Assembly: GCA_963668315.1 (NCBI GenBank)
Contig: OY764216.1
Span: 1,408,001-1,472,000 of the forward strand
From: Spirochaetia bacterium
GTDB taxonomy: Bacteria > Spirochaetota > Spirochaetia > DSM-2461
Direction of reading: 5' to 3'
DNA: 64,000 nt
Shown piece after piece: positions 1-12,671 of this stretch. Every line of letters starts with the position of its first letter. The first letter of the stretch is position 1. The position numbers were made by a program, and so were the translations under genes. The notes beneath the pieces are model-generated. The model was not told the origin of the DNA. It saw only the letters and a program-made list of their open reading frames with translations, and made no database searches.

Positions 1-108
1 ACATCCCAGCTGAGCGGACTTTCCGTCTCCGGGGTGAGGAAGCGGTTGAGGAAGCTGAGAGAAGCGGGATTGGAAATGGAAGGATATACGGCGGAGAGAA
101 GCAAATGA
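1..108 (+). CDS. 3' end of probable ECF sigma factor (region 4.2 HTH), partial
   Basis: Frame 1 reads TSQLSGLSVSGVRKRLRKLREAGLEMEGYTAERSK*, similar to ECF sigma4 'xGxSxxxVrxRLxr'. The stop overlaps the next ATG (ATGA at 105-108). Confidence 0.65.
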   Translation, partial: TSQLSGLSVSGVRKRLRKLREAGLEMEGYTAERSK

Positions 109-899
109 AAGATAATAAAAAAATAATGACAGAACTGTTCCGCCTGGGGGAGCTGCCCGAAGGCTGGGAAGATAAAGTTGACAGAGAAACCATTGACGGT
201 GATGTGAGCGAGCTTCTCTCTTCCGACCGTGATATTCTGGATAGGTACAGGCCTTCCCGGATGGCCGCCGAGATTGAGGAGAAGGCACGGAGCGCCCGGG
301 CCGGCAGGAAACGGAATCGTGTCAGGACGGCGGTTGCCTATACGGCGGCGGCCGCGGCCATGCTGGTCATGGGGCTGATTCTTCCCGGAATCATGACCGA
401 ATCTACCGAATTTGACCCTGCCGGAACGACCCGGATCAAAGGTCAGTCGGAAGCCGGACTTACCGTCTACCGCAATACGGGACTTTCCACGGAAGTTCTC
501 GATGAGAACAGTACGGCCCGGGAAGGGGATCTCATTCAGCTGGGCTATTCCGTCTTTACCGAAATGCCCTACGGTATCATCCTTTCCATAGACGGCCGGG
601 GAATTGTCACACGCCATCTGGCGCCGGAAGGCCAGATCTCCGAAAAACTTCTCCCCGGAGGAGAACATCTTCTGGATTTTGCCTACGAGCTTGATGATGC
701 CCCACGGTTCGAAACATTCTATCTGCTTGTCTCCGACAGGCCCTTTCCCGTGGATCCTGTGATCGATCTTCTTTCCAGGGAAGCCCGGGGAGAGGGAAAT
801 ATCATCGATATTCCGGAGATCATAGGAAAAAGCTCTCTCGATTCCCGCGGAATTGGAAAAATGGTTCAATTCGCGGTATCAATACCCAAAGAGGATTAG
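105..899 (+). CDS. Putative anti-sigma factor: cytoplasmic N-terminus, one TM helix, periplasmic DUF4384/ActD-like domain
   Basis: Basic stretch followed by hydrophobic AVAYTAAAAAMLVMGLILPGI, then TRIKG and 'AREGDLIQLGY...ILSIDGRG.VT.H...AYELDDAPRFETF'. Translationally coupled to the upstream sigma fragment. Confidence 0.7.
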   Translation: MKDNKKIMTELFRLGELPEGWEDKVDRETIDGDVSELLSSDRDILDRYRPSRMAAEIEEKARSARAGRKRNRVRTAVAYTAAAAAMLVMGLILPGIMTESTEFDPAGTTRIKGQSEAGLTVYRNTGLSTEVLDENSTAREGDLIQLGYSVFTEMPYGIILSIDGRGIVTRHLAPEGQISEKLLPGGEHLLDFAYELDDAPRFETFYLLVSDRPFPVDPVIDLLSREARGEGNIIDIPEIIGKSSLDSRGIGKMVQFAVSIPKED

Positions 900-903
900 T
901 ACA

Positions 904-2994
904 GTGAAGAAAAATACTCTCTTTATGATATTTTTTACCCTATCCGTTCTTTTCAGTGCCCGATGGGGGAGCGCTCTGAATGCAGAAGCCATGGAAGTCC
1001 GCCGTTTCGGCCTGTTTATCGGAGCCAACAACGGAGGGGATGAGCGCCAGACTCTGCTTTATGCCGATGATGACGCCCGGGATATGATGCTGACCATGGA
1101 GCAGATAGGGGGCATCGATCCTTCGGACAGCCTCCTGCTTCTGAACCCCACCGCCGGGAAAATCCGGGAGGCCCTGAAAATCATCTCCCTTCAAATCGAA
1201 GATGTTAACCCCCTGGTCAGACGGACGGAAATCATGTTCTACTACTCGGGACACTCCAACGGTCAGGGGCTTCTTCTGGCCGATGAAGATCTCTCCTACA
1301 AGGATATCAGAGACTCCCTGGACACGACCGGCGCGGATGTGGTCATCGCCGTTCTCGATTCCTGCTCATCCGGCGCCTTTACCAGGGCCAAGGGCGGCGA
1401 GAGACGCTCCCCCTTCCTGATCGACGAATCGTCCAGCATGGAGGGACATGCCTTTCTCACTTCCAGTTCCGAATCTGAACTGTCCCAGGAATCGGATCTT
1501 ATCGAGGGATCTTTCTTTACCCATTACCTTATCTCCGGTCTGCGGGGAGCGGCTGACAATACGGGAGACGGGCGTGTTTCGCTTAATGAGATTTATGAGC
1601 ATACCTTCCGGGAAACCCTTTCTTCCACGGAATCCACCATCGGCGGCCCTCAGCATGCTACCTATGAGATTCAGCTGACCGGTACGGGCGATTTGGTTTT
1701 GACCGATCTGACGATTCCCACCTCTGCGCTTCTGATCTCCGGGGAACTGGCAGGGCGCTTTTCCGTACGCTCCGGAGACAAACTGATAGCGGAGTTTTCC
1801 AAATACCGGGAGGATACCTTTAAAATGGCCCTTCCCGCCGGGGAATATACCATTAATATGGCCGATGGGGACGATGTCCGTTATGCCGATATCGAACTGA
1901 GTCGCAACGGACAGTTCTTTCTTACCGAGAAGGATTTTTCCAGCCGGCGGCTTGTCTGGACCCGCTTCCGAGGGGAGAGGAACTCCGATGAGGAGGTGGA
2001 AATCCCCTTTACCCTTTCACTCTTTCCCGGCATAAATTATCCCACTCTTCCCGATAACTCCGTTGTCATGCTGCAGGCGGGATTGAGTGCCTATGCCCCC
2101 CGGTTTGAAGGGGTGCAGGCCAGCTATCTGTTCAATATCACCCAGGATGACAGTGAGGGAGTTCAGGTTTCCCAGAATTTCAATATTGCCCGAAGTAATT
2201 TTCAAGGCATTCAGGGAGCGGGTATATTCAACATAGCCGGGGGAAACCTCCAGGGAGTACAGGGCGCCGGACTTTTCAATATCGCCGGAGATGAGCTGAG
2301 CGGACTTCAGGCGGCGGGACTTTTTAATATGGCCGGGCGCCCCTCTTCGGGAGTACAGCTCTCCGGCCTATTCAATATAGCCGGAGAGCTGGAGGGTTTT
2401 CAGGCGGCGGGTTTGTTCAATTCGACCGATTATCTGGACGGTATGCAGATCTCCCTGGTAAACAAGGCGGGAACGGTCGACGGGTTTCAGCTCGGGCTGG
2501 TCAATATCGCCCGTGAAATGGACGGCTTGGCCGTGGGGCTTATCAATATTTCCCGGAACGGAATCGTCGATCTGGGTGCCTGGTATGACAGCGGGGACGG
2601 TAAAATGTATACCTTCTTTCAGTCGGGAAGTCCCTATTTCTACACGCTCTATTTCATCGGCAATGAATTTCCCGACCATTCGGAAAGGGAGACTGTCTGG
2701 GGGGCCCATGCCGGATGCCGCCTGGGACTGGGCCCCCTGGAGATCGATCTGGACGGAGGATTCAGAAGCGCCTGGCAGGATGTCATGGATTCGGGAGCCG
2801 ATACTCCCTATCTTCTTCCCTCCGGCCGGGCTGTGATCGCGTTCAAAGGTCTGGGACTCTTCTGCGGATTCAGTGCGGTCATGTCTTTCCCGGGAAGTTA
2901 TGAATCCACCCTCTACGACGGGGACAGCTTCGCTCTCTTCGGGAATGAGGATTACCATATCTATCCGGACTTTATCATCGGCTTAAGGATCTGA
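904..2994 (+). CDS. Exported caspase-like (peptidase C14) protein with G-x-Q-x-x-G-x-x-N repeats and a probable C-terminal beta-barrel
   Basis: GTG at 904 after GAGGA; signal peptide; 'FIGANNG', YYSGH (His 1252-1254) and VLDSC (Cys 1363-1365). About 10 repeats at 2104-2560. Ends in an amphipathic strand, FIIGLRI. Confidence 0.85.
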   Translation: MKKNTLFMIFFTLSVLFSARWGSALNAEAMEVRRFGLFIGANNGGDERQTLLYADDDARDMMLTMEQIGGIDPSDSLLLLNPTAGKIREALKIISLQIEDVNPLVRRTEIMFYYSGHSNGQGLLLADEDLSYKDIRDSLDTTGADVVIAVLDSCSSGAFTRAKGGERRSPFLIDESSSMEGHAFLTSSSESELSQESDLIEGSFFTHYLISGLRGAADNTGDGRVSLNEIYEHTFRETLSSTESTIGGPQHATYEIQLTGTGDLVLTDLTIPTSALLISGELAGRFSVRSGDKLIAEFSKYREDTFKMALPAGEYTINMADGDDVRYADIELSRNGQFFLTEKDFSSRRLVWTRFRGERNSDEEVEIPFTLSLFPGINYPTLPDNSVVMLQAGLSAYAPRFEGVQASYLFNITQDDSEGVQVSQNFNIARSNFQGIQGAGIFNIAGGNLQGVQGAGLFNIAGDELSGLQAAGLFNMAGRPSSGVQLSGLFNIAGELEGFQAAGLFNSTDYLDGMQISLVNKAGTVDGFQLGLVNIAREMDGLAVGLINISRNGIVDLGAWYDSGDGKMYTFFQSGSPYFYTLYFIGNEFPDHSERETVWGAHAGCRLGLGPLEIDLDGGFRSAWQDVMDSGADTPYLLPSGRAVIAFKGLGLFCGFSAVMSFPGSYESTLYDGDSFALFGNEDYHIYPDFIIGLRI
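2104..2560 (+). repeat. About 10 tandem 14-16 aa repeats (GxQxxGxFNxA; LA_2272-like surface repeat)
   Basis: GVQASYLFN, GVQVSQNFN, GIQGAGIFN, GVQGAGLFN, GLQAAGLFN, GVQLSGLFN, GFQAAGLFN, GMQISLVN, GFQLGLVN, GLAVGLIN. Confidence 0.85.
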
Positions 2995-3072: not shown

Positions 3073-3471
3073 ATGGGAAATTATCCCGATTTTACCTATG
3101 CCCATACGGGACTTAACGTCGATGACAGGGAAGCCTGCGAAAAATGGTATGTAGAGAATCTTAATCTGAAGATTGTCCGTTCCGTTCCCGGCAATATGAG
3201 TTTTCTTGCCGATCCTACGGGCCGGGTTGTCCTGGAGATCTACTCCAATAAAGCGGCTCCGGTTCTGGACTTTCCCGGTATTCATTTCCTGTCTCTTCAT
3301 CTTGCCTTTCTTGTGGATGACCCGGAAAAAAGAGCGTCGGAATTGATTAAGGCGGGGGCGACAATCGCCGAAGACTATAAAATCACCGATGTGGGGGACA
3401 GAATGATTATGCTTCAAGATCCCTTCGGTGTGGCTATTCAATTAATCAAGAGACAGGAACCCATGTTCTGA
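3073..3471 (+). CDS. VOC/glyoxalase family protein
   Basis: AAGGAG RBS; 'HTGLNVDD...WY...LG', 'LEIY', 'HLAFLVDD', 'QDPFGVAIQL'. Confidence 0.85.
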   Translation: MGNYPDFTYAHTGLNVDDREACEKWYVENLNLKIVRSVPGNMSFLADPTGRVVLEIYSNKAAPVLDFPGIHFLSLHLAFLVDDPEKRASELIKAGATIAEDYKITDVGDRMIMLQDPFGVAIQLIKRQEPMF

Positions 3472-4408: not shown

Positions 4409-5581
4409 TTAAAGGGTATTCACGTCGGCGGAGTAATCCACCCCTTCCACTTCAAAACCGTGGAGTTCCATGTAATCCTTCTTGAAACCTTCCAGATCTC
4501 CCTTTTCTGCCAGGAGATCTTCATCCACCCTGTCCCAGAGGGAAGCGACGGCTTTCTGCACGTCGTCGGCCATTTCCCAGTCGTCCATGCGGACGAATCC
4601 CTGGCCGTCTTTTATGGTCCCTTCCGATCCGTAGATCTTATCGGACAGCATACGCTGCATCTGTTCGCGGCAGCCCTCGTGGGTTCCCTTTTCCTTCATG
4701 ATTTTGAAGAGCAGGGCTATGTAAACCGAGACACCGGGAATAACGGCGCTTGATCGTGTTACCAGAGCTTTGTTGACCGAGATAAAGGCTTCACCGGAGA
4801 GATCGTTCAGCTCTTTCTGAAGTTCGCTGGCCGTAGCTTCCAGGTGTAGCTTGGCCTGTCCGATTGTTCCTTCCCGGTAAATAGGGTAGGTCATGGGGGA
4901 ACCGATATAGGTATAGGCCACGGTCTTGACGCCATCGGCCAGAACGCCGGCTTCCTTCATCGTTTTGATCCAGAGAGCCCAGTCCTCGCCGCCCATCACC
5001 TTGACGGTGGCGTTGATTTCCTCTTCCGATGCCGGGTCCAGGGTCAGACTTTTCAGTTTTCCGCTCAGGTCCATGGCAAAAGAGGTATAGGGTTCTTTGA
5101 TGGTCTTAAGGACAGACCGGTACATCTCTCCCGTATCGGGATCGGTCCTGACAGGAGAGGCAAGGCTGTATACAACCATATCCACCTGTCCGTCCTCGAA
5201 GAACGTTTTGATCCTGTCGATGACGGTTTTTCTCGTATCATGGGAAAAGGCATCGGCGTTGATGCTTTCGGCTTTCAGACCATCAGCCTGAGCCGCCGCA
5301 TCAAAGGTTCTGTTATTGTAGAAACCGGGTGTTCCCGGTCTTTTGGCGCTGCCCTCTTTTTCAAAGGAAACGCCCAGAGTATCGGCTCCGCCGGAGAAAG
5401 CGGCGGAAATTCTGGTGGCCAGGCCGAATCCGGTGGAACAGCCCAGAACCAATACTCTTTTAGGCATGGAGACCTTAGGCTGAGCCTTGGCCCACTCGAT
5501 GTCTCTTTTTACGATGGCCTCGCATCCCACAGGGTGGGAGGTAAGGCAGACGTTGTTCATGATTTTAGGTTCAATTATCAT
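4409..5581 (-). CDS. fabV: Enoyl-ACP reductase FabV / trans-2-enoyl-CoA reductase
   Basis: 'HPVGC', GCSTGFG, YSLASP, 'VKVMGGEDW', Y-x8-K (YREGTIGQAK). Confidence 0.95.
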   Translation of the reverse strand: MIIEPKIMNNVCLTSHPVGCEAIVKRDIEWAKAQPKVSMPKRVLVLGCSTGFGLATRISAAFSGGADTLGVSFEKEGSAKRPGTPGFYNNRTFDAAAQADGLKAESINADAFSHDTRKTVIDRIKTFFEDGQVDMVVYSLASPVRTDPDTGEMYRSVLKTIKEPYTSFAMDLSGKLKSLTLDPASEEEINATVKVMGGEDWALWIKTMKEAGVLADGVKTVAYTYIGSPMTYPIYREGTIGQAKLHLEATASELQKELNDLSGEAFISVNKALVTRSSAVIPGVSVYIALLFKIMKEKGTHEGCREQMQRMLSDKIYGSEGTIKDGQGFVRMDDWEMADDVQKAVASLWDRVDEDLLAEKGDLEGFKKDYMELHGFEVEGVDYSADVNTL

Positions 5582-6003
5582 TACGCTTCTCCTGCTAAGC
5601 ACATCCAGCTGGCCTGACAGGCCAGTTCGTCACCCACAAAGGCTTTGCCTTTCTGTTTGATCATCCGGCCGGAAACCATTTCGTTCTCGATTTCAAAACG
5701 GACTTCGTCGCCGGGAACAACCTGACGGCGGAACTTCGCCTTTTCAACGGTTGCCAGGAAGAAGAGGGCGCTCGCCGCAGCGGCTCCGCTCTTCTTCAGG
5801 CCGGCGCCGCCGACCTGTGCCATCGCTTCAATCAGCAGTACGCCCGGCACGACGGGATGACCGGGGAAATGTCCTTTGAAAAAGAAATCCGATTCGGTGT
5901 ACTTTCTATATCCAATTATGTTCTTTTCGTCACATTTTTCAATACGATCGACAAAAAGAAAGGGATCTCTGTGAGGGAGAAGCTGTTCAATTTCGTTACT
6001 CAT
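5581..6003 (-). CDS. fabZ: 3-hydroxyacyl-ACP dehydratase
   Basis: LPHRDPFLFVD, FFKGHFPGHPVVPGVLLIEAMAQ. Confidence 0.97.
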   Translation of the reverse strand: MSNEIEQLLPHRDPFLFVDRIEKCDEKNIIGYRKYTESDFFFKGHFPGHPVVPGVLLIEAMAQVGGAGLKKSGAAAASALFFLATVEKAKFRRQVVPGDEVRFEIENEMVSGRMIKQKGKAFVGDELACQASWMCLAGEA

Positions 6004-6010
6004 AGTGTTC

Positions 6011-7252
6011 TTACCCCTTATACTTCTTAATTACGATGGAACCGTTGTGTCCGCCGAATCCCAGGTTGTCCGAAAGGGTCGCATTGACCTCCATTTCTAT
6101 TCCTTTGTTGGGAACATAATCCAGATCACATTTTTCGTCGGCTTCGAAGAGGTTCATTGTTCCGGGAACAAAACTGTCCTGGATGGCCTTGATACAGACA
6201 ATGGCCTCAACACCGCCGGTGGCACCCAGCATATGGCCGTGCATGGCTTTGGTGGAGCTTACCTTGACCTTTTTGGCATGATCGCCGAAGGCTTCCTTGA
6301 TGGCCAGGGTCTCGCAGGGGTCATTAATGGGGGTGGAGGTACCATGGGCGTTGATATAATCGATATCTTCCGGCTTGAGCCCGGCGTCTTCCACGGCAAT
6401 TTTCATACTGGCAGCGCCCCCCTTACCTTCGGGGTCGGGCGCGGTGAGATGACCGGCATCGCAGGTCATTCCGAAACCGGCGATTTCGGCGTAAATCGTG
6501 GCTCCCCTTTTCTTGGCATGTTCCAGTTCTTCAAGAACCAGAATGCCCGCGCCCTCGCCCATGACAAAACCGTCCCGGTCCTTGTCAAAGGGGCGGCTGG
6601 CTGTTTTGGGGTCGTCATTCCGGGTACTGAGGGCCAGGAGTTTGTTGAACGAACCCACCGCAAAGGGGGTAATCGTCGCTTCCGTTCCGCCGGAGACGAT
6701 GATGTCGGCCATGCCGGAGCGGATGGTGTTCATCGCGTAGCCGATGGCATCCGTGCCGGAGGCACAGGCCGTGGCCAGGGCAAAACAGGGGCCGTGCAGG
6801 CCGTATTTGATGGAAACGTTTGCCGGACCTTCGTTGCTGATCAGCTTCGGTATGGCCATGGGGGCGATACCTGCCTGGGGGCCTTTGGCTGCCAGGCCGC
6901 GGATATTTTCCTCGGTTACTTCGAATCCGCCGATTCCGCATCCCAGGATACAGCCGGCTCTGTTGTGATCGAAGTTATCCTCCGTAAGGCCGGCATCATT
7001 CATGGCTTCCGCAGTGGCGGCCACGGCAAACTGGGTGAATCGGGCCATCTTCCGGGCTTCTTTTCTGTCCATAAAATCGGAAGCGTTAAAGTCTTTGACT
7101 TCTGCGGCAATTTTGGTGGCGAATTCGGTCGTATCGAACTGAGTGATCAGATCGATACCGATCGTACCGGCTTTTATGTTTTTCCAGAATTCTTCTACGC
7201 TGTGTCCTATGGGATTGATGGTTCCCATTCCGGTTACTACTACTCTTCTCAT
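6011..7252 (-). CDS. fabF: Beta-ketoacyl-ACP synthase II
   Basis: RRVVVTGMG, TACASG, NAHGTST, GHMLGATG, GFGGHN. Confidence 0.97.
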   Translation of the reverse strand: MRRVVVTGMGTINPIGHSVEEFWKNIKAGTIGIDLITQFDTTEFATKIAAEVKDFNASDFMDRKEARKMARFTQFAVAATAEAMNDAGLTEDNFDHNRAGCILGCGIGGFEVTEENIRGLAAKGPQAGIAPMAIPKLISNEGPANVSIKYGLHGPCFALATACASGTDAIGYAMNTIRSGMADIIVSGGTEATITPFAVGSFNKLLALSTRNDDPKTASRPFDKDRDGFVMGEGAGILVLEELEHAKKRGATIYAEIAGFGMTCDAGHLTAPDPEGKGGAASMKIAVEDAGLKPEDIDYINAHGTSTPINDPCETLAIKEAFGDHAKKVKVSSTKAMHGHMLGATGGVEAIVCIKAIQDSFVPGTMNLFEADEKCDLDYVPNKGIEMEVNATLSDNLGFGGHNGSIVIKKYKG

Positions 7253-7266
7253 TTTATCTTCTCCTC

Positions 7267-8004
7267 CTACATTACCATTCCGCCGTCAACGGTCAGAACC
7301 TGACCGGTAACGTAGCGAGCCATATCCGATGCCAGGAAAAGCACTGCATTGGCTATATCTTGCGGTTCACCCAGCTGATTCATGGGAATCTGTGCCTGAA
7401 TGGATTCTTTAATATCATCTTTAAGTTTTTCTGTCATATCGGTCTTGATAAAACCGGGGGCAATGGCGTTAACCCGAACGCCCCTTTTGGCCGTTTCCTT
7501 GGCCAGAGCCTTGGTAAAACCGATTAAGCCGGCTTTGCTGGCGGCGTAGTTCGTCTGTCCTGCGTTACCCATGAGGCCGATAACGGAAGCCATATTGATG
7601 ATGACGCCCGATCTCTGACGGATCATGAAACGGGAAGCTTCCCTGGCCACGATAAAGGCTCCGGTCAGGTTCACATCAAGAACCTGCTGCCACTGTTCGG
7701 TACTCATGCGGAAGACAAGTCCGTCTTTTTCAATGCCCGCGTTGTTGATGACTACATCCAGTCCGTCCTTGGTGACTTCTTCCAGAATCTTCACAACGCC
7801 CGCTTCATCGGTCACATTTCCCTGGTACCATTTAAGGGAGGTGCCTGCCGCTTTGGCTTTTTCCTCCATCTCGCTGTGGAAGGGGCTTTCCTTCGTGCTC
7901 AGATAGGAAACATGGGCACCCTGTTCGAGACAGGCCATGACAATTGCTTTCCCGATACCCCGGGAACCACCGGTTACAAATACTTTCTTATCCTTTAACA
8001 GCAT
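7267..8004 (-). CDS. fabG: 3-oxoacyl-ACP reductase
   Basis: TGGSRGIG, NNAG, YAASK, APGFIKTDMT. Confidence 0.96.
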   Translation of the reverse strand: MLLKDKKVFVTGGSRGIGKAIVMACLEQGAHVSYLSTKESPFHSEMEEKAKAAGTSLKWYQGNVTDEAGVVKILEEVTKDGLDVVINNAGIEKDGLVFRMSTEQWQQVLDVNLTGAFIVAREASRFMIRQRSGVIINMASVIGLMGNAGQTNYAASKAGLIGFTKALAKETAKRGVRVNAIAPGFIKTDMTEKLKDDIKESIQAQIPMNQLGEPQDIANAVLFLASDMARYVTGQVLTVDGGMVM

Positions 8005-8022
8005 GATTACCTCGCTTATATA

Positions 8023-9006
8023 TTACCAAATTAAATAGTTCCCGCCGTAGGTCAATCCGGCGCCGAACCCAACGGTCAGTATTTTCTGACCTTTCTTGAG
8101 AAGACCCCTTCTGTCCATATCGGAAAGGGCCAGGGGAATGGACGCTCCGGAAGTATTGGCGAATTCGTCCATATTCAGGTAGAACTTGTCAAGAGGGATC
8201 TTATCCCGCTTGGCCGCCGCCTCTATGATGCGTCTGTTAGCCTGATGGGGGACGATCCAGTCGATGTCATCTACGGACAAATTATTCCTTTCCATTAAAT
8301 CTTTCAATATGACCGTGTTGGCCCGAACGGCGAATTCATAAACCCGCCGGCCGTCCATCTGCAGAAAATGGTCTTTGCCCACGATTTCTCCCTCTATGAA
8401 GGGATTGGAGGTTCCCCCCCGGTTATGGCTCAGCGCATCGGAGCCCGAGCCTTCGGCCCTTAAGAGAGAGTTGATTACCCCCCGGGGTTCTCCTTCGCCG
8501 GCTTCGAGAACAACCGCTCCCGCTCCGTCTCCGAAGAGGATGCAGTTGTTTCTGTTGGTCCAGTCCAGGACACGGGAGAGCCTTTCCGTGCCGATAACCA
8601 GGATCTTATGGCAGGTCCCGTTATTTATAAGGCCCTTGCCCAGCTCCAGTCCGTAGACGAAGCCGGAGCAGGCGGCTTTGATATCCATGGCGCCGCAGCT
8701 GTTGTTTCCCAAAAGATCCTGTATCAGGCAGGCGGTGGAGGGCATTTCATGATAATCCGCCGTTATGGTGGAGACAAGGATCATATCAATGTCCTGCGCC
8801 GTAATGCCCCGCTTCTCCAGGGCTTCCTGGGCAGCCTTATATCCCATGTATGAGGTCGTTTCTGTGTCTGAGGAGATATGCCGATTTCCTATTCCCGTGT
8901 GGGAACGGATCCATTCATCACTGGTATCAAGGGTTTTCGCCAATTCATCATTAGAGACCCTTTTTTCCGGAACGTAATGTCCCAATGAACTGATATAAGC
9001 ATTCAT
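8023..9006 (-). CDS. fabH: Beta-ketoacyl-ACP synthase III
   Basis: AACSGF, FGDGAGA, PHQAN, ANTSGAS, GFGAGLT. Confidence 0.96.
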   Translation of the reverse strand: MNAYISSLGHYVPEKRVSNDELAKTLDTSDEWIRSHTGIGNRHISSDTETTSYMGYKAAQEALEKRGITAQDIDMILVSTITADYHEMPSTACLIQDLLGNNSCGAMDIKAACSGFVYGLELGKGLINNGTCHKILVIGTERLSRVLDWTNRNNCILFGDGAGAVVLEAGEGEPRGVINSLLRAEGSGSDALSHNRGGTSNPFIEGEIVGKDHFLQMDGRRVYEFAVRANTVILKDLMERNNLSVDDIDWIVPHQANRRIIEAAAKRDKIPLDKFYLNMDEFANTSGASIPLALSDMDRRGLLKKGQKILTVGFGAGLTYGGNYLIW

Positions 9007-9013
9007 GAATCTC

Positions 9014-9073
9014 ATTATTTACATTTTCTGCCATTTTGTCAATATTGACAGATTCCACTATTGGGGATATATT
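9014..9073. promoter_or_regulatory. Divergent sigma70 promoters for the fab and acc operons with back-to-back -35 boxes
   Basis: Perfect palindrome TGTCAATATTGACA at 9037-9050. + strand: TTGACA-N17-TATATT. - strand: TTGACA-N17-AATAAT. Confidence 0.75.
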
Positions 9074-9113
9074 AGAAAAAGCGATTGAATTTTGAAATAA
9101 AGGAGTATCTCCC

Positions 9114-9584
9114 GTGTCGAATGGTTTTGTAAAGGATAAGGAAGACCTGTTTGAATTAATGGAGAAATTCGAAAAATCTGATATGAGCGAACTGACTCTC
9201 AAATTTGACGATCAGCTCATTAAAATGAAAAAGGGGGGCGATCAGAATATTATGGCACCCCTGGCTCCCATGGCCCAGCAGTACGCCGCTGCACCTGCGG
9301 TATCCGCAAGTGCTCCGGCTTCCGATGCTCCGGCCGCCGTCGAGGGTGAAATTATCTCCGCCCCTCTGGTGGGAACCTTTTACCGTCAGCCCGCACCGGA
9401 TGCCCCTCCCTTCGTAGAAGCGGGGACCAAAGTTAAAGCCGGTGACACTCTTTGTATTCTGGAAGCCATGAAGATCATGAATGAGCTGGAAGCGGAGTTT
9501 GACTGTGAAATACTGGAAGTTCTGATTGATTCGGGGGCTCTCGCCGAATTCGGAACACCTCTTTACCGGGTAAAACGCTTATGA
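9114..9584 (+). CDS. accB: Acetyl-CoA carboxylase biotin carboxyl carrier protein
   Basis: GTG after AAGGAG; APLVGTFY, EAMK biotinylation motif. Confidence 0.96.
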   Translation: MSNGFVKDKEDLFELMEKFEKSDMSELTLKFDDQLIKMKKGGDQNIMAPLAPMAQQYAAAPAVSASAPASDAPAAVEGEIISAPLVGTFYRQPAPDAPPFVEAGTKVKAGDTLCILEAMKIMNELEAEFDCEILEVLIDSGALAEFGTPLYRVKRL

Positions 9585-10897
9585 TCAAGCGCCTTCTGAT
9601 AGCAAACAGAGGGGAGATCGCCGTTCGAATTATCAGAACTTGCCGCGAATTGGACATTGAAACGGTTGTGGTTTATTCCCAGGCGGACGAAGACTCCCTG
9701 CCCGTAAAAATGGCTGATCAGGCCGTTTGCATTGGACCTCCGTCCTCCACGGAGAGTTATCTTAAGAAAGAAAGCCTCATCAGTACGGCCCTGGCCACGA
9801 GATGTGAGGCTATACATCCCGGGGTCGGTTTTCTTTCGGAGAACGCCGATTTTGCCGAAATGTCCAGGGAGGCAGGTCTGATCTTTATCGGTCCCGACCC
9901 CCGGGTCACCCGGATGCTGGGAGACAAGGTTCAGGCCAAGAGAACCGCCGATGAAGCGGGTCTTCCCCTGATCCCCGGCAGCGACGGCGCTGTGGAGTCG
10001 GTGGAAAAGGCTCTGGAACTGTCCAGGAGTATGGGATTCCCCCTTATCGTGAAAGCAGCTTCCGGCGGCGGCGGAAAGGGTATGCGCATCGTTAATTCCG
10101 AAGCGGAATTGAAATCGGCATTTCCCATAGCCAGCCAGGAGGCGGCCAATAATTTCGGCGACCCGACTCTGTATATGGAAAAATACATGACCAGGCCCCG
10201 TCACGTGGAAGTTCAGCTTCTGGCCGACGGTAAGGATAACGTCATCTATCTGGGGGAGAGGGATTGTTCTGTACAGAAAAATCACCAGAAACTCCTGGAA
10301 GAGTCTCCCTCCACCATCCTTACCGATGATATGCGGGACAGGATTGAAAAAGCTTCGGTGACCCTTTTCAGAAATATCGGGTACTGCGGAGCGGGAACGA
10401 TCGAATTCCTCGTGGAAGGGGGAGAGTTCTTTTTCATGGAGGTCAACGCCCGGGTGCAGGTGGAACATACCGTTACCGAACTCATGACGGGAGTGGATAT
10501 AATCCGCCAGCAGATTCTGGCCTGTACCACCGGTCGGATGGAAATAACCCAGGACGATGTGAATGTTAAGGGTTATGCCCTTGAGGCCCGTATCAATGCC
10601 AGAGGTGCCGGTCGGATTACAAACTTTTTTCCTCCCCTGGGACCCTACGTCAGGGTTGATACTCATATCTTCCCCGGCTATCTGGTTCCTCCCTATTACG
10701 ATTCCATGATAGCGAAGGTTCTTGTTCAGGCACCCAACAGAACACAGGGAATCAAGCGGATGATCCGTGTTCTCAAGGAAATGGAGCTGGAAGGGGTAGA
10801 GACCAACCGGGATGAGCAGATCGTTCTGCTGAAATGCCGTCCCTTCCAGTCGGGTAATTTCGATACGGCCCTCTACGGCCAGATCATTAAAGACTGA
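9581..10897 (+). CDS. accC: Biotin carboxylase
   Basis: IANRGEIA, GGGGKGMR, ERDCSVQ, FMEVNARVQVEH, YYDSMIAK. Confidence 0.96.
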   Translation: MIKRLLIANRGEIAVRIIRTCRELDIETVVVYSQADEDSLPVKMADQAVCIGPPSSTESYLKKESLISTALATRCEAIHPGVGFLSENADFAEMSREAGLIFIGPDPRVTRMLGDKVQAKRTADEAGLPLIPGSDGAVESVEKALELSRSMGFPLIVKAASGGGGKGMRIVNSEAELKSAFPIASQEAANNFGDPTLYMEKYMTRPRHVEVQLLADGKDNVIYLGERDCSVQKNHQKLLEESPSTILTDDMRDRIEKASVTLFRNIGYCGAGTIEFLVEGGEFFFMEVNARVQVEHTVTELMTGVDIIRQQILACTTGRMEITQDDVNVKGYALEARINARGAGRITNFFPPLGPYVRVDTHIFPGYLVPPYYDSMIAKVLVQAPNRTQGIKRMIRVLKEMELEGVETNRDEQIVLLKCRPFQSGNFDTALYGQIIKD

Positions 10898-10907
10898 GGA
10901 TAACCCT

Positions 10908-11708
10908 ATGGTAGATATGAATAATCCCTATGCCCAGGTCCAGGAGGCAGAGTGCCCCCGGTGCATGACCGTCATGACCGCCGAGGCTATGAAAAATCAC
11001 TATCAGGTATGCACAGGCTGCGGCTATCACTTCCGCATGCCCGCCGCCGCCCGAATCCATCATATTGTTGACGAAGGTTCTTTTCAGGAAATGGATCATG
11101 ACCTGGTCAGTAAAAACCCCATTGCCATCAAGGGGTACGAGGAGAAAATCTCCGAGGCCCAGAAAAAGTCCGATCTGTCCGATGCCGTGGTAACCGGTAC
11201 CGCCAGAATCGACGGGCAGAACTGTGTCCTGGGGGTTATGTCCTTCCAGTTCATGGGAGGCAGCATGGGATCCGTCGTAGGTGAGAAGATCACCCGGGCC
11301 ATGCTTCATGGAGCCGATACGAATCAGCCTGTGATTCTCTTTACCGCTTCCGGCGGCGCCCGTATGCAGGAGGGAATCTTTTCCCTGATGCAGATGGCAA
11401 AAACGGCCAATGCCGCCGCCCTGCTTGATGATCTGGGTATCCCCCTGTTTATCGTTCTTACCCATCCTACTACCGGTGGTGTAACGGCTTCCTTCGCCAT
11501 GCTGGGCGATGTCACTCTGGCCGAACCGGGCGCCCTGATCGGGTTTGCCGGTCCCCGGGTTATCGAGGGAACGATCAATAAGAAACTTCCCGCCGGTTTC
11601 CAGAGTGCCGAATTCCAGCAGGAAAAGGGGTTCGTTGATAAAATCGTCCCCCGGAAGGAACTCAAAAAGACCCTGTCCTTTCTGATCAGGACCCATACAG
11701 GAGCGTAA
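10908..11708 (+). CDS. accD: Carboxyltransferase beta subunit
   Basis: C4 zinc finger, FMGGSMG, SGGARMQEG, PTTGGV, GFAGPRV. Confidence 0.96.
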   Translation: MVDMNNPYAQVQEAECPRCMTVMTAEAMKNHYQVCTGCGYHFRMPAAARIHHIVDEGSFQEMDHDLVSKNPIAIKGYEEKISEAQKKSDLSDAVVTGTARIDGQNCVLGVMSFQFMGGSMGSVVGEKITRAMLHGADTNQPVILFTASGGARMQEGIFSLMQMAKTANAAALLDDLGIPLFIVLTHPTTGGVTASFAMLGDVTLAEPGALIGFAGPRVIEGTINKKLPAGFQSAEFQQEKGFVDKIVPRKELKKTLSFLIRTHTGA

Positions 11709-11711
11709 GCT

Positions 11712-12671
11712 GTGGACGAACTGAAAAACAAGCTGGAAGAGCTGAAGGCTCTGGCCGGCAAGGAAAATCTGGATATAAACAAAAATCTGGCAGAGATCGA
11801 GGCTATGCTCAATGTGGGCAAGGATTCTCCCACCTGGGAAAAGGTCCAGCTGGCCCGCCGCCTGGACAGACCGGGGGCTCTTGAATACATCAGCCTGATC
11901 TGCGACGAGTTCATGGAGCTGCACGGCGACCGTTATTTCAAGGATGATCCGGCCCTTATCGGAGGCATCGGCACAATCAACGGTCAGGCCATCACTTTTA
12001 TCGGAAATCAGAAGGGTTCCAACCTCAAGGAGAACCTCTACCGCAACCACGGTATGGGAAGCCCCGAAGGCTACCGGAAGGCCCTGCGCCTGGTTAAACA
12101 GGCCGAGAAGTTCCACCGTCCTGTCGTCTCCTTCATAGATACATCGGGTGCCTATCCCGGACCCGAAGCGGAAGCGCGGGGAATCGGAGAGGCTATTGCC
12201 CGGAATCTCAAGGAATTTTCCCTGGTGAAGGTTCCCATTATCTGTTTCGTCATTGGCGAAGGCGGATCGGGCGGTGCCCTGGGAATCGGCGTGGGCGATA
12301 AGCTTTACATGCTGGAAAATTCCATCTACTCCGTCATATCCCCGGAAGGTTTCGCTTCGATTCTTCTGCGTGACAGCAATAAGGCCAAGGAAGCGGCGGA
12401 TATCATGAAGATGACAGCCAAGGATCTCTTCGAGTTCGGCATTATACACGGCATCATTCCCGAAGCTCCCGGCGGAGCCCAGAATGATCCGTCCTACACC
12501 GCGAATATGATCAAGGAGCTCATCCTTTCCAATATCGAAGTGCTTAGTAAAAAGAAACCGGACAGCCTCATACGCTACCGGTCCCGTAAAATCCGGGAAA
12601 TCGGTCAGTTTACCGAAAACGCCGGGAAAGAGCAGGACCTTTTCAGTCTGTTTTCCCGTCTCTTCTCATAA
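11712..12671 (+). CDS. accA: Carboxyltransferase alpha subunit
   Basis: ELHGDR, PEGYRKALR, GEGGSGGAL, YSVISPEG. Confidence 0.96.
   Translation: MDELKNKLEELKALAGKENLDINKNLAEIEAMLNVGKDSPTWEKVQLARRLDRPGALEYISLICDEFMELHGDRYFKDDPALIGGIGTINGQAITFIGNQKGSNLKENLYRNHGMGSPEGYRKALRLVKQAEKFHRPVVSFIDTSGAYPGPEAEARGIGEAIARNLKEFSLVKVPIICFVIGEGGSGGALGIGVGDKLYMLENSIYSVISPEGFASILLRDSNKAKEAADIMKMTAKDLFEFGIIHGIIPEAPGGAQNDPSYTANMIKELILSNIEVLSKKKPDSLIRYRSRKIREIGQFTENAGKEQDLFSLFSRLFS

Follow-up and report, generated by a model that had tools for sequence, protein, structure and literature searches.

In the RseA/DegS/RseP system of sigma-E, a periplasmic site-1 cut near the membrane is followed by intramembrane proteolysis. 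Here, we analyze a cassette at the start of a 64,000-nucleotide stretch from a Spirochaetia bacterium (GenBank assembly GCA_963668315.1, contig OY764216.1, positions 1,408,001 to 1,472,000 of the forward strand; the whole stretch is called the window), in which a sigma factor of the extracytoplasmic function (ECF) type, a single-pass anti-sigma factor and an exported C14 (caspase-family) protease with a C-terminal beta-barrel are encoded in this order. A related arrangement is DdvS/DdvA of Myxococcus xanthus, also an ECF sigma factor with a single-pass, zinc-type anti-sigma factor (PMC11506125; this and the published work cited below is represented by the portions of text consulted). DdvA carries a periplasmic caspase-clan domain that has been proposed as the site-1 protease, making its cut in a flexible linker near the membrane, and its truncated form is degraded by RseP; this CHAT domain, however, is part of the anti-sigma factor itself and has an incomplete active site, and the text consulted gives no mapped site (PMC11506125). 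Operons of sigma-70 and metacaspase genes, probably with the same gene order as the cassette, were listed in 2012 for M. xanthus, Anaeromyxobacter, Haliangium, Sorangium and Fibrobacter, in an account whose consulted text mentions no anti-sigma factor, motif, location or mechanism (PMC3501461). We find that a Lys/Arg-Gly pair is conserved at three sites of the cassette, one in the anti-sigma factor and two in the protease, and argue that each is likely to be cut by the caspase-family protease of the cassette itself.

A preliminary description of the window had noticed T-R-x-[K/R]-G three times and read it as one cleavage code, cut between the basic residue and Gly. Translation confirmed all three copies in frame (Table 1): TRIKG is residues 109-113 of the anti-sigma factor, and TRAKG and TRFRG are residues 160-164 and 353-357 of the protease. 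As described, TRAKG begins six codons past the catalytic Cys (Thr160 versus Cys154), its Lys therefore being Cys+9, and TRFRG lies in the linker ahead of the repeat and barrel region, with Arg356-Gly357 between the enzyme and its predicted anchor. Lys112 of the anti-sigma factor comes 19 residues after the hydrophobic segment ends (the family has a median of 15 and a 5-95% range of 9-26, n = 231). The crude proteome of this genome holds 24 occurrences of the pattern in 1.61 million residues, or 0.014 expected per 960 residues; the probability of at least three copies in 960 residues is ~5e-7, a figure valid only if the pattern was named beforehand. In an after-the-fact control, 139 of 753 neighbouring gene pairs shared some pattern of such shape three times, and 7 of the 753, the cassette pair included, shared an equally rare triple. 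The genome alone thus gives a level of ~1%, and it is therefore conservation that carries the observation.

Close relatives are Spirochaetales, and the cassette is also found in records named Myxococcota, Acidobacteriota and Latescibacterota. Eighty loci were chosen by peptide patterns outside the motifs, without using the anti-sigma factor (the 80 best of 571), and about 160 further loci, only part of the matches listed, were for the most part taken from genome samples of a myxobacterium's phylum (61 and 121 genomes) and of an acidobacterium's (151 genomes). Among the 244 loci read, 240 had an anti-sigma match and 221 an adjacent caspase. Anti-sigma rows that end before the site (L015, L018, L048, L237) or are non-homologous over it (L140, L141) were left out, as were L070 and L188 from the 80-locus linker count; the caspase of L171, on the other strand, was kept in the 80-locus and first Asp198 counts and left out of later ones. 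The 204-cassette set contains cassettes with all three sites readable; those with a site not found were left out.

By strict alignment column, Lys/Arg-Gly was present in 228/235 anti-sigma factors, 215/218 post-Cys loops and 206/213 linkers, and 200 of the 204 cassettes had it at all three sites. The preliminary description had staked its reading on conservation in homologues, and the basic-Gly pair was indeed kept at every site. The first homologue sets gave Lys112 in 119/120 and Gly113 in 115/120 anti-sigma factors; in the protease, Arg161, Lys163, Gly164 and Gly357 were each present in 119/119 and Arg356 in 118/119. In the 80 loci, the anti-sigma Lys was found in 73/73 and its Gly in 72/73, the loop Lys in 80/80 and the linker Arg/Lys-Gly in 79/79. 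In the anti-sigma factor, Gly113 ranks first and Lys112 third among all columns, they are the only invariant columns in 54 divergent members (26% mean identity), and other Lys/Arg-Gly pairs of the protein are retained in only 76/236, 2/196 and 1/17. The basic residue of the linker alternates by clade between Lys (112) and Arg (98) yet stays basic, the only replacement of Gly where the basic residue is kept is Ser, and the loop site shifts to Cys+8 or Cys+13 with insertions or deletions while retaining Lys-Gly. As a control, 30 residues at the site position were inspected in 48 unrelated DUF4384 proteins; Lys-Gly occurred in 1/48 and Lys/Arg-Gly in 9/48, close to the 22% expected from the genome rate. 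This control argues against a structural role. In the models, the predicted local distance difference test (pLDDT) score is <50 at all three sites (anti-sigma residues 93-113, protease residues 158-163 and 352-361), and each site is predicted to sit on a flexible stretch bordering a domain.

Beyond the basic-Gly pair, the original five-residue code fared less well. Thr was found at only 26/73 anti-sigma and 46/79 linker sites of the 80 loci and is, on these alignments, incidental. The full T-R-x-[K/R]-G was rejected as a code, since only 7 of 204 cassettes carry it at all three sites; the perfect triple characterizes this lineage. Arg at P3, the third residue before the predicted scissile bond, is preferred in the anti-sigma factor and the loop (72/73 and 80/80 in the 80 loci; 172/212 and 178/212 in the larger set) but not in the linker (29/79 and 38/204), so that the suggested R-x-[K/R]-G holds for two sites. 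What survives of a single specificity is basic-Gly in three unstructured segments, together with an enzyme whose acidic pocket suits Lys or Arg at P1.

P3 also points to a candidate second subsite. In 213 cassettes, P3 was basic in both loop and anti-sigma factor in 167, in neither in 22 and discordant in 24, one of the non-basic anti-sigma calls being false because the site in L162 was placed three residues off. Enzyme columns were screened for any that set the first 8 Arg-less cassettes apart, and Asp198 emerged, a position that is acidic in 99% of 134 others and in 188/220 enzymes overall. Basic P3 goes with an acid at position 198 (four-way counts 177/8/7/21 for the loop and 167/18/7/21 for the anti-sigma factor). 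The Arg-less clade, with 15 members from 13 genomes and a support of 86, has no basic P3 in either place and no acid at 198. Asp198 lies two residues past Glu196, on the loop that pairs with substrate, as placed from secondary structure; caspase-3 has an S3 residue at this position. The joint loss of the P3 Arg and Asp198 is a single event, and Asp198 is a candidate S3 subsite, offered as a lead. The co-variation that the preliminary description had asked for is thus seen in raw counts, mostly from one clade, and is nonsignificant after correction for kinship: phylogeny-corrected tests were nonsignificant in all six pairings, as in the first smaller set.

Based on these data, we propose the following scheme. 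An envelope signal, possibly clustering or calcium, would cause the enzyme to cut its own post-Cys loop after Lys163, as caspases cut their inter-subunit linker. A cut after Arg356 would free the 36 kDa enzyme from the barrel and let it reach the inner membrane, where a cut after anti-sigma Lys112 would shed the whole 17 kDa periplasmic domain and leave a stub of ~19 residues outside the membrane. The two cuts in the protease would turn its mature 73 kDa chain into pieces of ~15, 21 and 36 kDa. An RseP-type protease would then cut within the membrane and free the sigma factor, which would transcribe its own operon in a positive feedback. The specificity would be Lys/Arg at P1, Gly (rarely Ser) at P1' and Arg at P3, read by Asp198. 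We regard cleavage by the cassette enzyme as probable at the anti-sigma site and just as probable at the linker site, and as fairly probable at the loop site. The loop site is, in our assessment, the least certain of the three, because MALT1 leaves its loop uncut whereas Arabidopsis metacaspase 4 (AtMC4) cuts its site. On balance, we slightly favor the view that the cassette encodes a periplasmic caspase-family site-1 protease cutting after Lys/Arg and before Gly. The complete picture, a widespread switch across the envelope in which an outer-membrane-hung caspase matures, frees itself and opens the anti-sigma factor by one Lys/Arg-Gly code, with P3 tuned against Asp198 so as to partly insulate the many paralogous cassettes of a myxobacterium, is tentative and, taken as a whole, doubtful.

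Several observations weigh against this proposal. Residues following a catalytic Cys are conserved anyway, and MALT1, with the same pocket, leaves its post-Cys loop uncut (PMC4357240). In L289, Met replaces the anti-sigma Lys beside an intact-looking caspase, and the L316 anti-sigma factor lacks Lys-Gly at the site column. Ten anti-sigma factors have no caspase in the fetched stretch, and nine of them keep Lys-Gly, only L296 having lost it. Catalytically dead lineages, in which the motif might have decayed, were sought among 220 pairs, and none was found; the misses of catalytic residues there trace to truncation or a frameshift of the frame. The myxobacterial loci come from searches with anti-sigma profiles in which the Lys-Gly columns are included. 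One more Arg-Gly, on a catalytic-domain helix, is conserved in 167/217 and is probably structural. Regarding P3, a four-member clade without an acid at 198 keeps basic P3 at 7/8 sites, and the kinship-corrected comparison with Asp198 comes down to four independent pairs, for which the sign test gives a median p of 0.5 (loop) and 1 (anti-sigma factor).

There are four other explanations. The one closest to our proposal, which we think unlikely but the best of the four, has the enzyme cutting the anti-sigma factor and the linker only, the loop motif staying uncut and either becoming ordered on activation or sitting in the pocket as an auto-inhibitor. MALT1 would be the precedent, as it activates without loop cleavage and its loop is disordered only when unliganded (PMC4357240), and the loop site is fixed at Cys+9 in 80/80 close and 61/64 distant homologues. 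Yet the loop shares its P3 Arg with the anti-sigma factor, both being lost in the same clade, and its Lys-Gly survives shifts of position; moreover, AtMC4 has its site blocked by a linker Lys and also cuts there with calcium (10.1101/2020.03.09.983940). Quite unlikely, in our view, is that the anti-sigma motif serves as an inhibitory bait that holds the protease off, perhaps mutually, and is cut slowly or never, a signal separating the pair. Substrate-like inhibitors would produce the same conservation, PCi both inhibits PCaspase and is cut by it (10.1101/2023.06.23.546230), and the folded DUF4384-type domain is itself conserved; a site 9-26 residues from the inner membrane, however, is in the usual place for site-1 cleavage, as established for RseA, and the enzyme is predicted to stay on the outer membrane until release.

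Slightly less probable again is that the sites bait another Lys/Arg-specific protease, the cell's own or that of a phage or predator, so that the cassette senses foreign proteolysis and its caspase is at most an amplifier or has other targets. Retention of the motif in nine of ten anti-sigma factors without an adjacent caspase would fit this, as would the activation of PCaspase by a separate upstream protease (10.1101/2023.06.23.546230), but most of the genomes concerned have a further complete cassette able to act in trans, the dyad of the cassette enzyme is intact and its pocket acidic, and P3 changes accompany a change inside that enzyme. That the motifs are structural turns or mere coincidence is very improbable: shared short patterns are common among neighbouring genes when sought after the fact (139/753) and Lys/Arg-Gly occurs ~8 times per 960 residues, against which stand the invariance of the pair in three unrelated contexts, within segments that otherwise vary and are modelled with low confidence, and the unrelated DUF4384 domains without Lys-Gly. 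Cleavage by the cassette's own enzyme remains our preferred explanation of the three sites.

Table 1 Features of the sigma/anti-sigma/protease cassette (positions in nucleotides of the window; E, expectation value; fractions, homologues with the feature)
Feature	Position	Strand	Evidence or remark
3' end of ECF-type sigma gene	1..108	+	Gene start ~380 bases before the window; Sigma70_r2 E 6.5e-11, Sigma70_r4_2 E 3e-5
Predicted anti-sigma factor, 264 residues	105..899	+	Model, fold search, homologue matches to zf-HC2 and DUF4384
Predicted transmembrane helix, ~residues 75-95, basic cluster ahead	327..389	+	Hydropathy
Site 1, TRIK/G, predicted scissile bond Lys112-Gly113 (bases 440/441)	429..443	+	Lys/Arg-Gly 228/235; just before folded periplasmic domain
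Exported C14 (caspase-family) protease, 696 residues	904..2994	+	Peptidase_C14 (PF00656) E 4e-7, above cut-off; model, fold searches
Predicted signal peptide, residues 1-27	904..984	+	Hydrophobic stretch before domain in 186/193
Asp57, predicted S1 pocket	1072..1074	+	Asp/Glu in 219/220; aligns with metacaspase Asp on first helix
Catalytic His117	1252..1254	+	218/220
Asp152 (predicted S1 pocket) and catalytic Cys154	1357..1365	+	217/220 each
Site 2, TRAK/G, predicted scissile bond Lys163-Gly164	1381..1395	+	Lys/Arg-Gly 215/218; loop separating the p20-like half from the p10-like half
Glu196 (predicted S1 pocket, positioned as is MALT1 Glu500); Asp198 (candidate S3 subsite)	1489..1497	+	Glu196 217/220; placement from secondary structure
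EF-hand-like loop (Asp218, Asp222, Glu229), candidate calcium site	1555..1590	+	214, 203 and 210 of 215
All-beta domain after catalytic domain, ~residues 271-348	1714..1947	+	Model
Site 3, TRFR/G, predicted scissile bond Arg356-Gly357	1960..1974	+	Lys/Arg-Gly 206/213
Beta-helix of LA_2272-type repeats, ~residues 364-552	1993..2559	+	NF047436 E 5e-11; beta-helix match, Z 16.6
Eight-stranded beta-barrel, predicted outer-membrane anchor	2560..2991	+	OprF barrel: Z 14.4, root-mean-square deviation 2.3, 111 aligned

The protease adopts, in its model, a caspase fold over residues 30-270 with p20-like and p10-like halves (Z 18-20 in fold comparison with caspases, with metacaspase 4 and with MALT1). 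Asp57, Asp152 and Glu196 are near-invariant and together make up a predicted acidic S1 pocket like that of basic-P1 enzymes (C14B: para-, meta- and orthocaspases); Asp57 and Asp152 were placed by alignment to metacaspases, whose profile alignments stop before Glu196. The metacaspase specificity-pocket Cys aligns with Ala in this enzyme. The conserved EF-hand-like loop, which differs from the four-aspartate calcium site of metacaspases and weakly matches calcium-binding proteins (E 0.09), suggests that calcium may be needed. The beta-helix is absent from many myxobacterial homologues, judging by tail lengths, and the barrel also matches NspA, OprH and OmpW in fold search. The membrane anchor of the preliminary description is accordingly corrected to a predicted outer-membrane barrel. 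Both termini of OprF-like eight-stranded barrels are in the periplasm, and the enzyme is therefore predicted to face the periplasm, as its signal-like start also predicts; the anti-sigma site would lie in this compartment as well.

Elsewhere in the genome, a 300-residue protein with a signal-like start (genome 1136557-1137132, L084) matches the protease in its repeat and barrel part alone. A cluster at 5.43-5.48 Mb (L085-L088, L341, L364) holds four other caspase-family open reading frames (ORFs), distant from the cassette enzyme, and three DUF4384 domains, one DUF4384 protein having Arg-Gly 25 residues ahead of the domain; this cluster could be acquired DNA or an assembly join. Similarly, the stand-alone DUF4384 proteins L319, L326, L329, L334 and L341, some in caspase-rich clusters, have Arg-Gly-(Ile/Leu) 25-39 residues ahead of the domain, and Arg-Gly before the domain may be found more widely among DUF4384 proteins linked to caspases.

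The stop codon of the sigma gene overlaps the start codon of the anti-sigma gene, and a sigma match was present in 139/151 loci. With one transmembrane helix and a gene directly after that of an ECF sigma factor, the second protein has the features of a single-pass anti-sigma factor, and sigma inhibition is predicted. Its model starts with a helical N-terminal domain and continues through a single hydrophobic segment and a low-confidence linker into an immunoglobulin (Ig)-like DUF4384-type domain (~residues 114-264). The zinc motif HxxxCxxC, found in 113/233 homologues, supports the anti-sigma label, though the window's copy is without it and looks like a member that has lost its zinc ligands. 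The window's protein has no match to DUF4384 (PF14326), and its NCBIfam anti-sigma matches are weak and below cut-off; above cut-off are zf-HC2 in homologue L156 and DUF4384 in homologues L156 and L184, and a source names one homologue 'ActD-like'. Foldseek returned nothing at E 0.001 for the anti-sigma model, and a wide fold search gave middling Ig-like matches for residues 114-264 (best Z 8.7) and none spanning the N-terminal domain; a sequence search of solved structures with the anti-sigma factor or the protease alone gave no match. In the supplement of the Casas-Pastor classification, ECF25 has DUF4384 and zinc-type anti-sigma factors in Deltaproteobacteria, Spirochaetes and Fibrobacteres.

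A promoter-like element, GT[AG]ACA-N17-TGTT, read by eye from 8 loci, was found upstream of 48/69 operons versus 2/69 control stretches, which fits autoregulation; here, GTAACA-N17-TGTT lies at genome position 1406909, 43 bases ahead of the first ORF of the operon. A scan of the genome gave 18 matches to this element and no clear target set beyond the operon. The operon opens just ahead of the window with a gene (genome 1406952-1407602, L001:1952-2602) for a protein of 216 residues that has a signal-like start, no Pfam match and a Cys/Trp/Asp-rich C-terminal tail common to close relatives. Variants of the cassette were also seen. In L014, L016 and L046 (Nannocystaceae), the sigma/anti-sigma pair is on the strand opposite the protease gene and the motifs are intact. 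In L274 and L290, the sigma and anti-sigma genes, the latter keeping the motif, are followed by one for a short protein of secreted appearance, similar by eye to the C-terminal barrel of the protease and to no other part of it. Three genomes (G027, G064, G096) have 13 to 20 anti-sigma-profile matches each, raising the question of cross-talk between cassettes. Downstream in the window, a glyoxalase-family gene (3073-3471) is followed by genes at 4409-12671 that we take, by names given from their translations, to be a fatty-acid synthesis/acetyl-CoA carboxylase cluster; neither shows any sign of belonging to the cassette.

If the proposal is correct, it would give caspase relatives a role other than in death and explain the sigma/metacaspase operons of 2012. 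Natural substrates are known for few bacterial caspase-family proteases, and we came across none that has been shown to make the first cut in an envelope anti-sigma factor. Our literature search, in which subscription journals were thinly covered, found no paper describing the motif or testing the cassette. The motif specifies three exact bonds, predicted fragment sizes and a specificity swap test, and the anti-sigma family, with >4,000 clusters at 50% identity (E up to 1e-10), includes culturable myxobacteria with several copies.

Among known proteases, MALT1 resembles the cassette enzyme in that an all-beta domain comes after the caspase fold (Z 18.4, root-mean-square deviation 3.9, 207 aligned), and its acids for P1 Arg, Asp365, Asp462 and Glu500, are on the elements that bear Asp57, Asp152 and Glu196 in the cassette (PMC4357240). 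In contrast to the cassette family, with Lys at two sites, MALT1 is cytosolic and Arg-specific, in addition to its uncut loop; basic P1 is the family rule outside animal caspases (PMC4357240; PMC5756287). The bacterial LcCaspase of Lysobacter has as its substrate a neighbouring alpha/beta-hydrolase with conserved Arg-Gly sites, assigned by model, conservation and fragment tests, but it activates a cell-death effector, and the text consulted describes no sigma factor or envelope anchor (10.1101/2025.11.14.688446). Caspase-like proteases are tied to sigma factors in PCaspase/PCc-sigma/PCi of Haliangium (10.1101/2023.06.23.546230) and in Craspase Csx29/Csx30/RpoE, where some Csx30 proteins carry DUF4384 (10.1101/2022.08.17.504292). 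Unlike the cassette, both are defence systems, triggered by CRISPR or CBASS; PCaspase is broad and activated by another protease, and Csx29 is a CHAT enzyme. Compared with DdvA, the C14 enzyme of the cassette is a protein in its own right, on a predicted outer-membrane barrel, and one motif occurs at three places. The cassette would share with RseA/DegS/RseP a site-1 cut near the membrane and a subsequent intramembrane cut, whereas DegS is an inner-membrane serine protease and the cassette has a caspase-family cysteine protease that would process itself at the same motif. The overall logic is thus ordinary, and the enzyme used is new.

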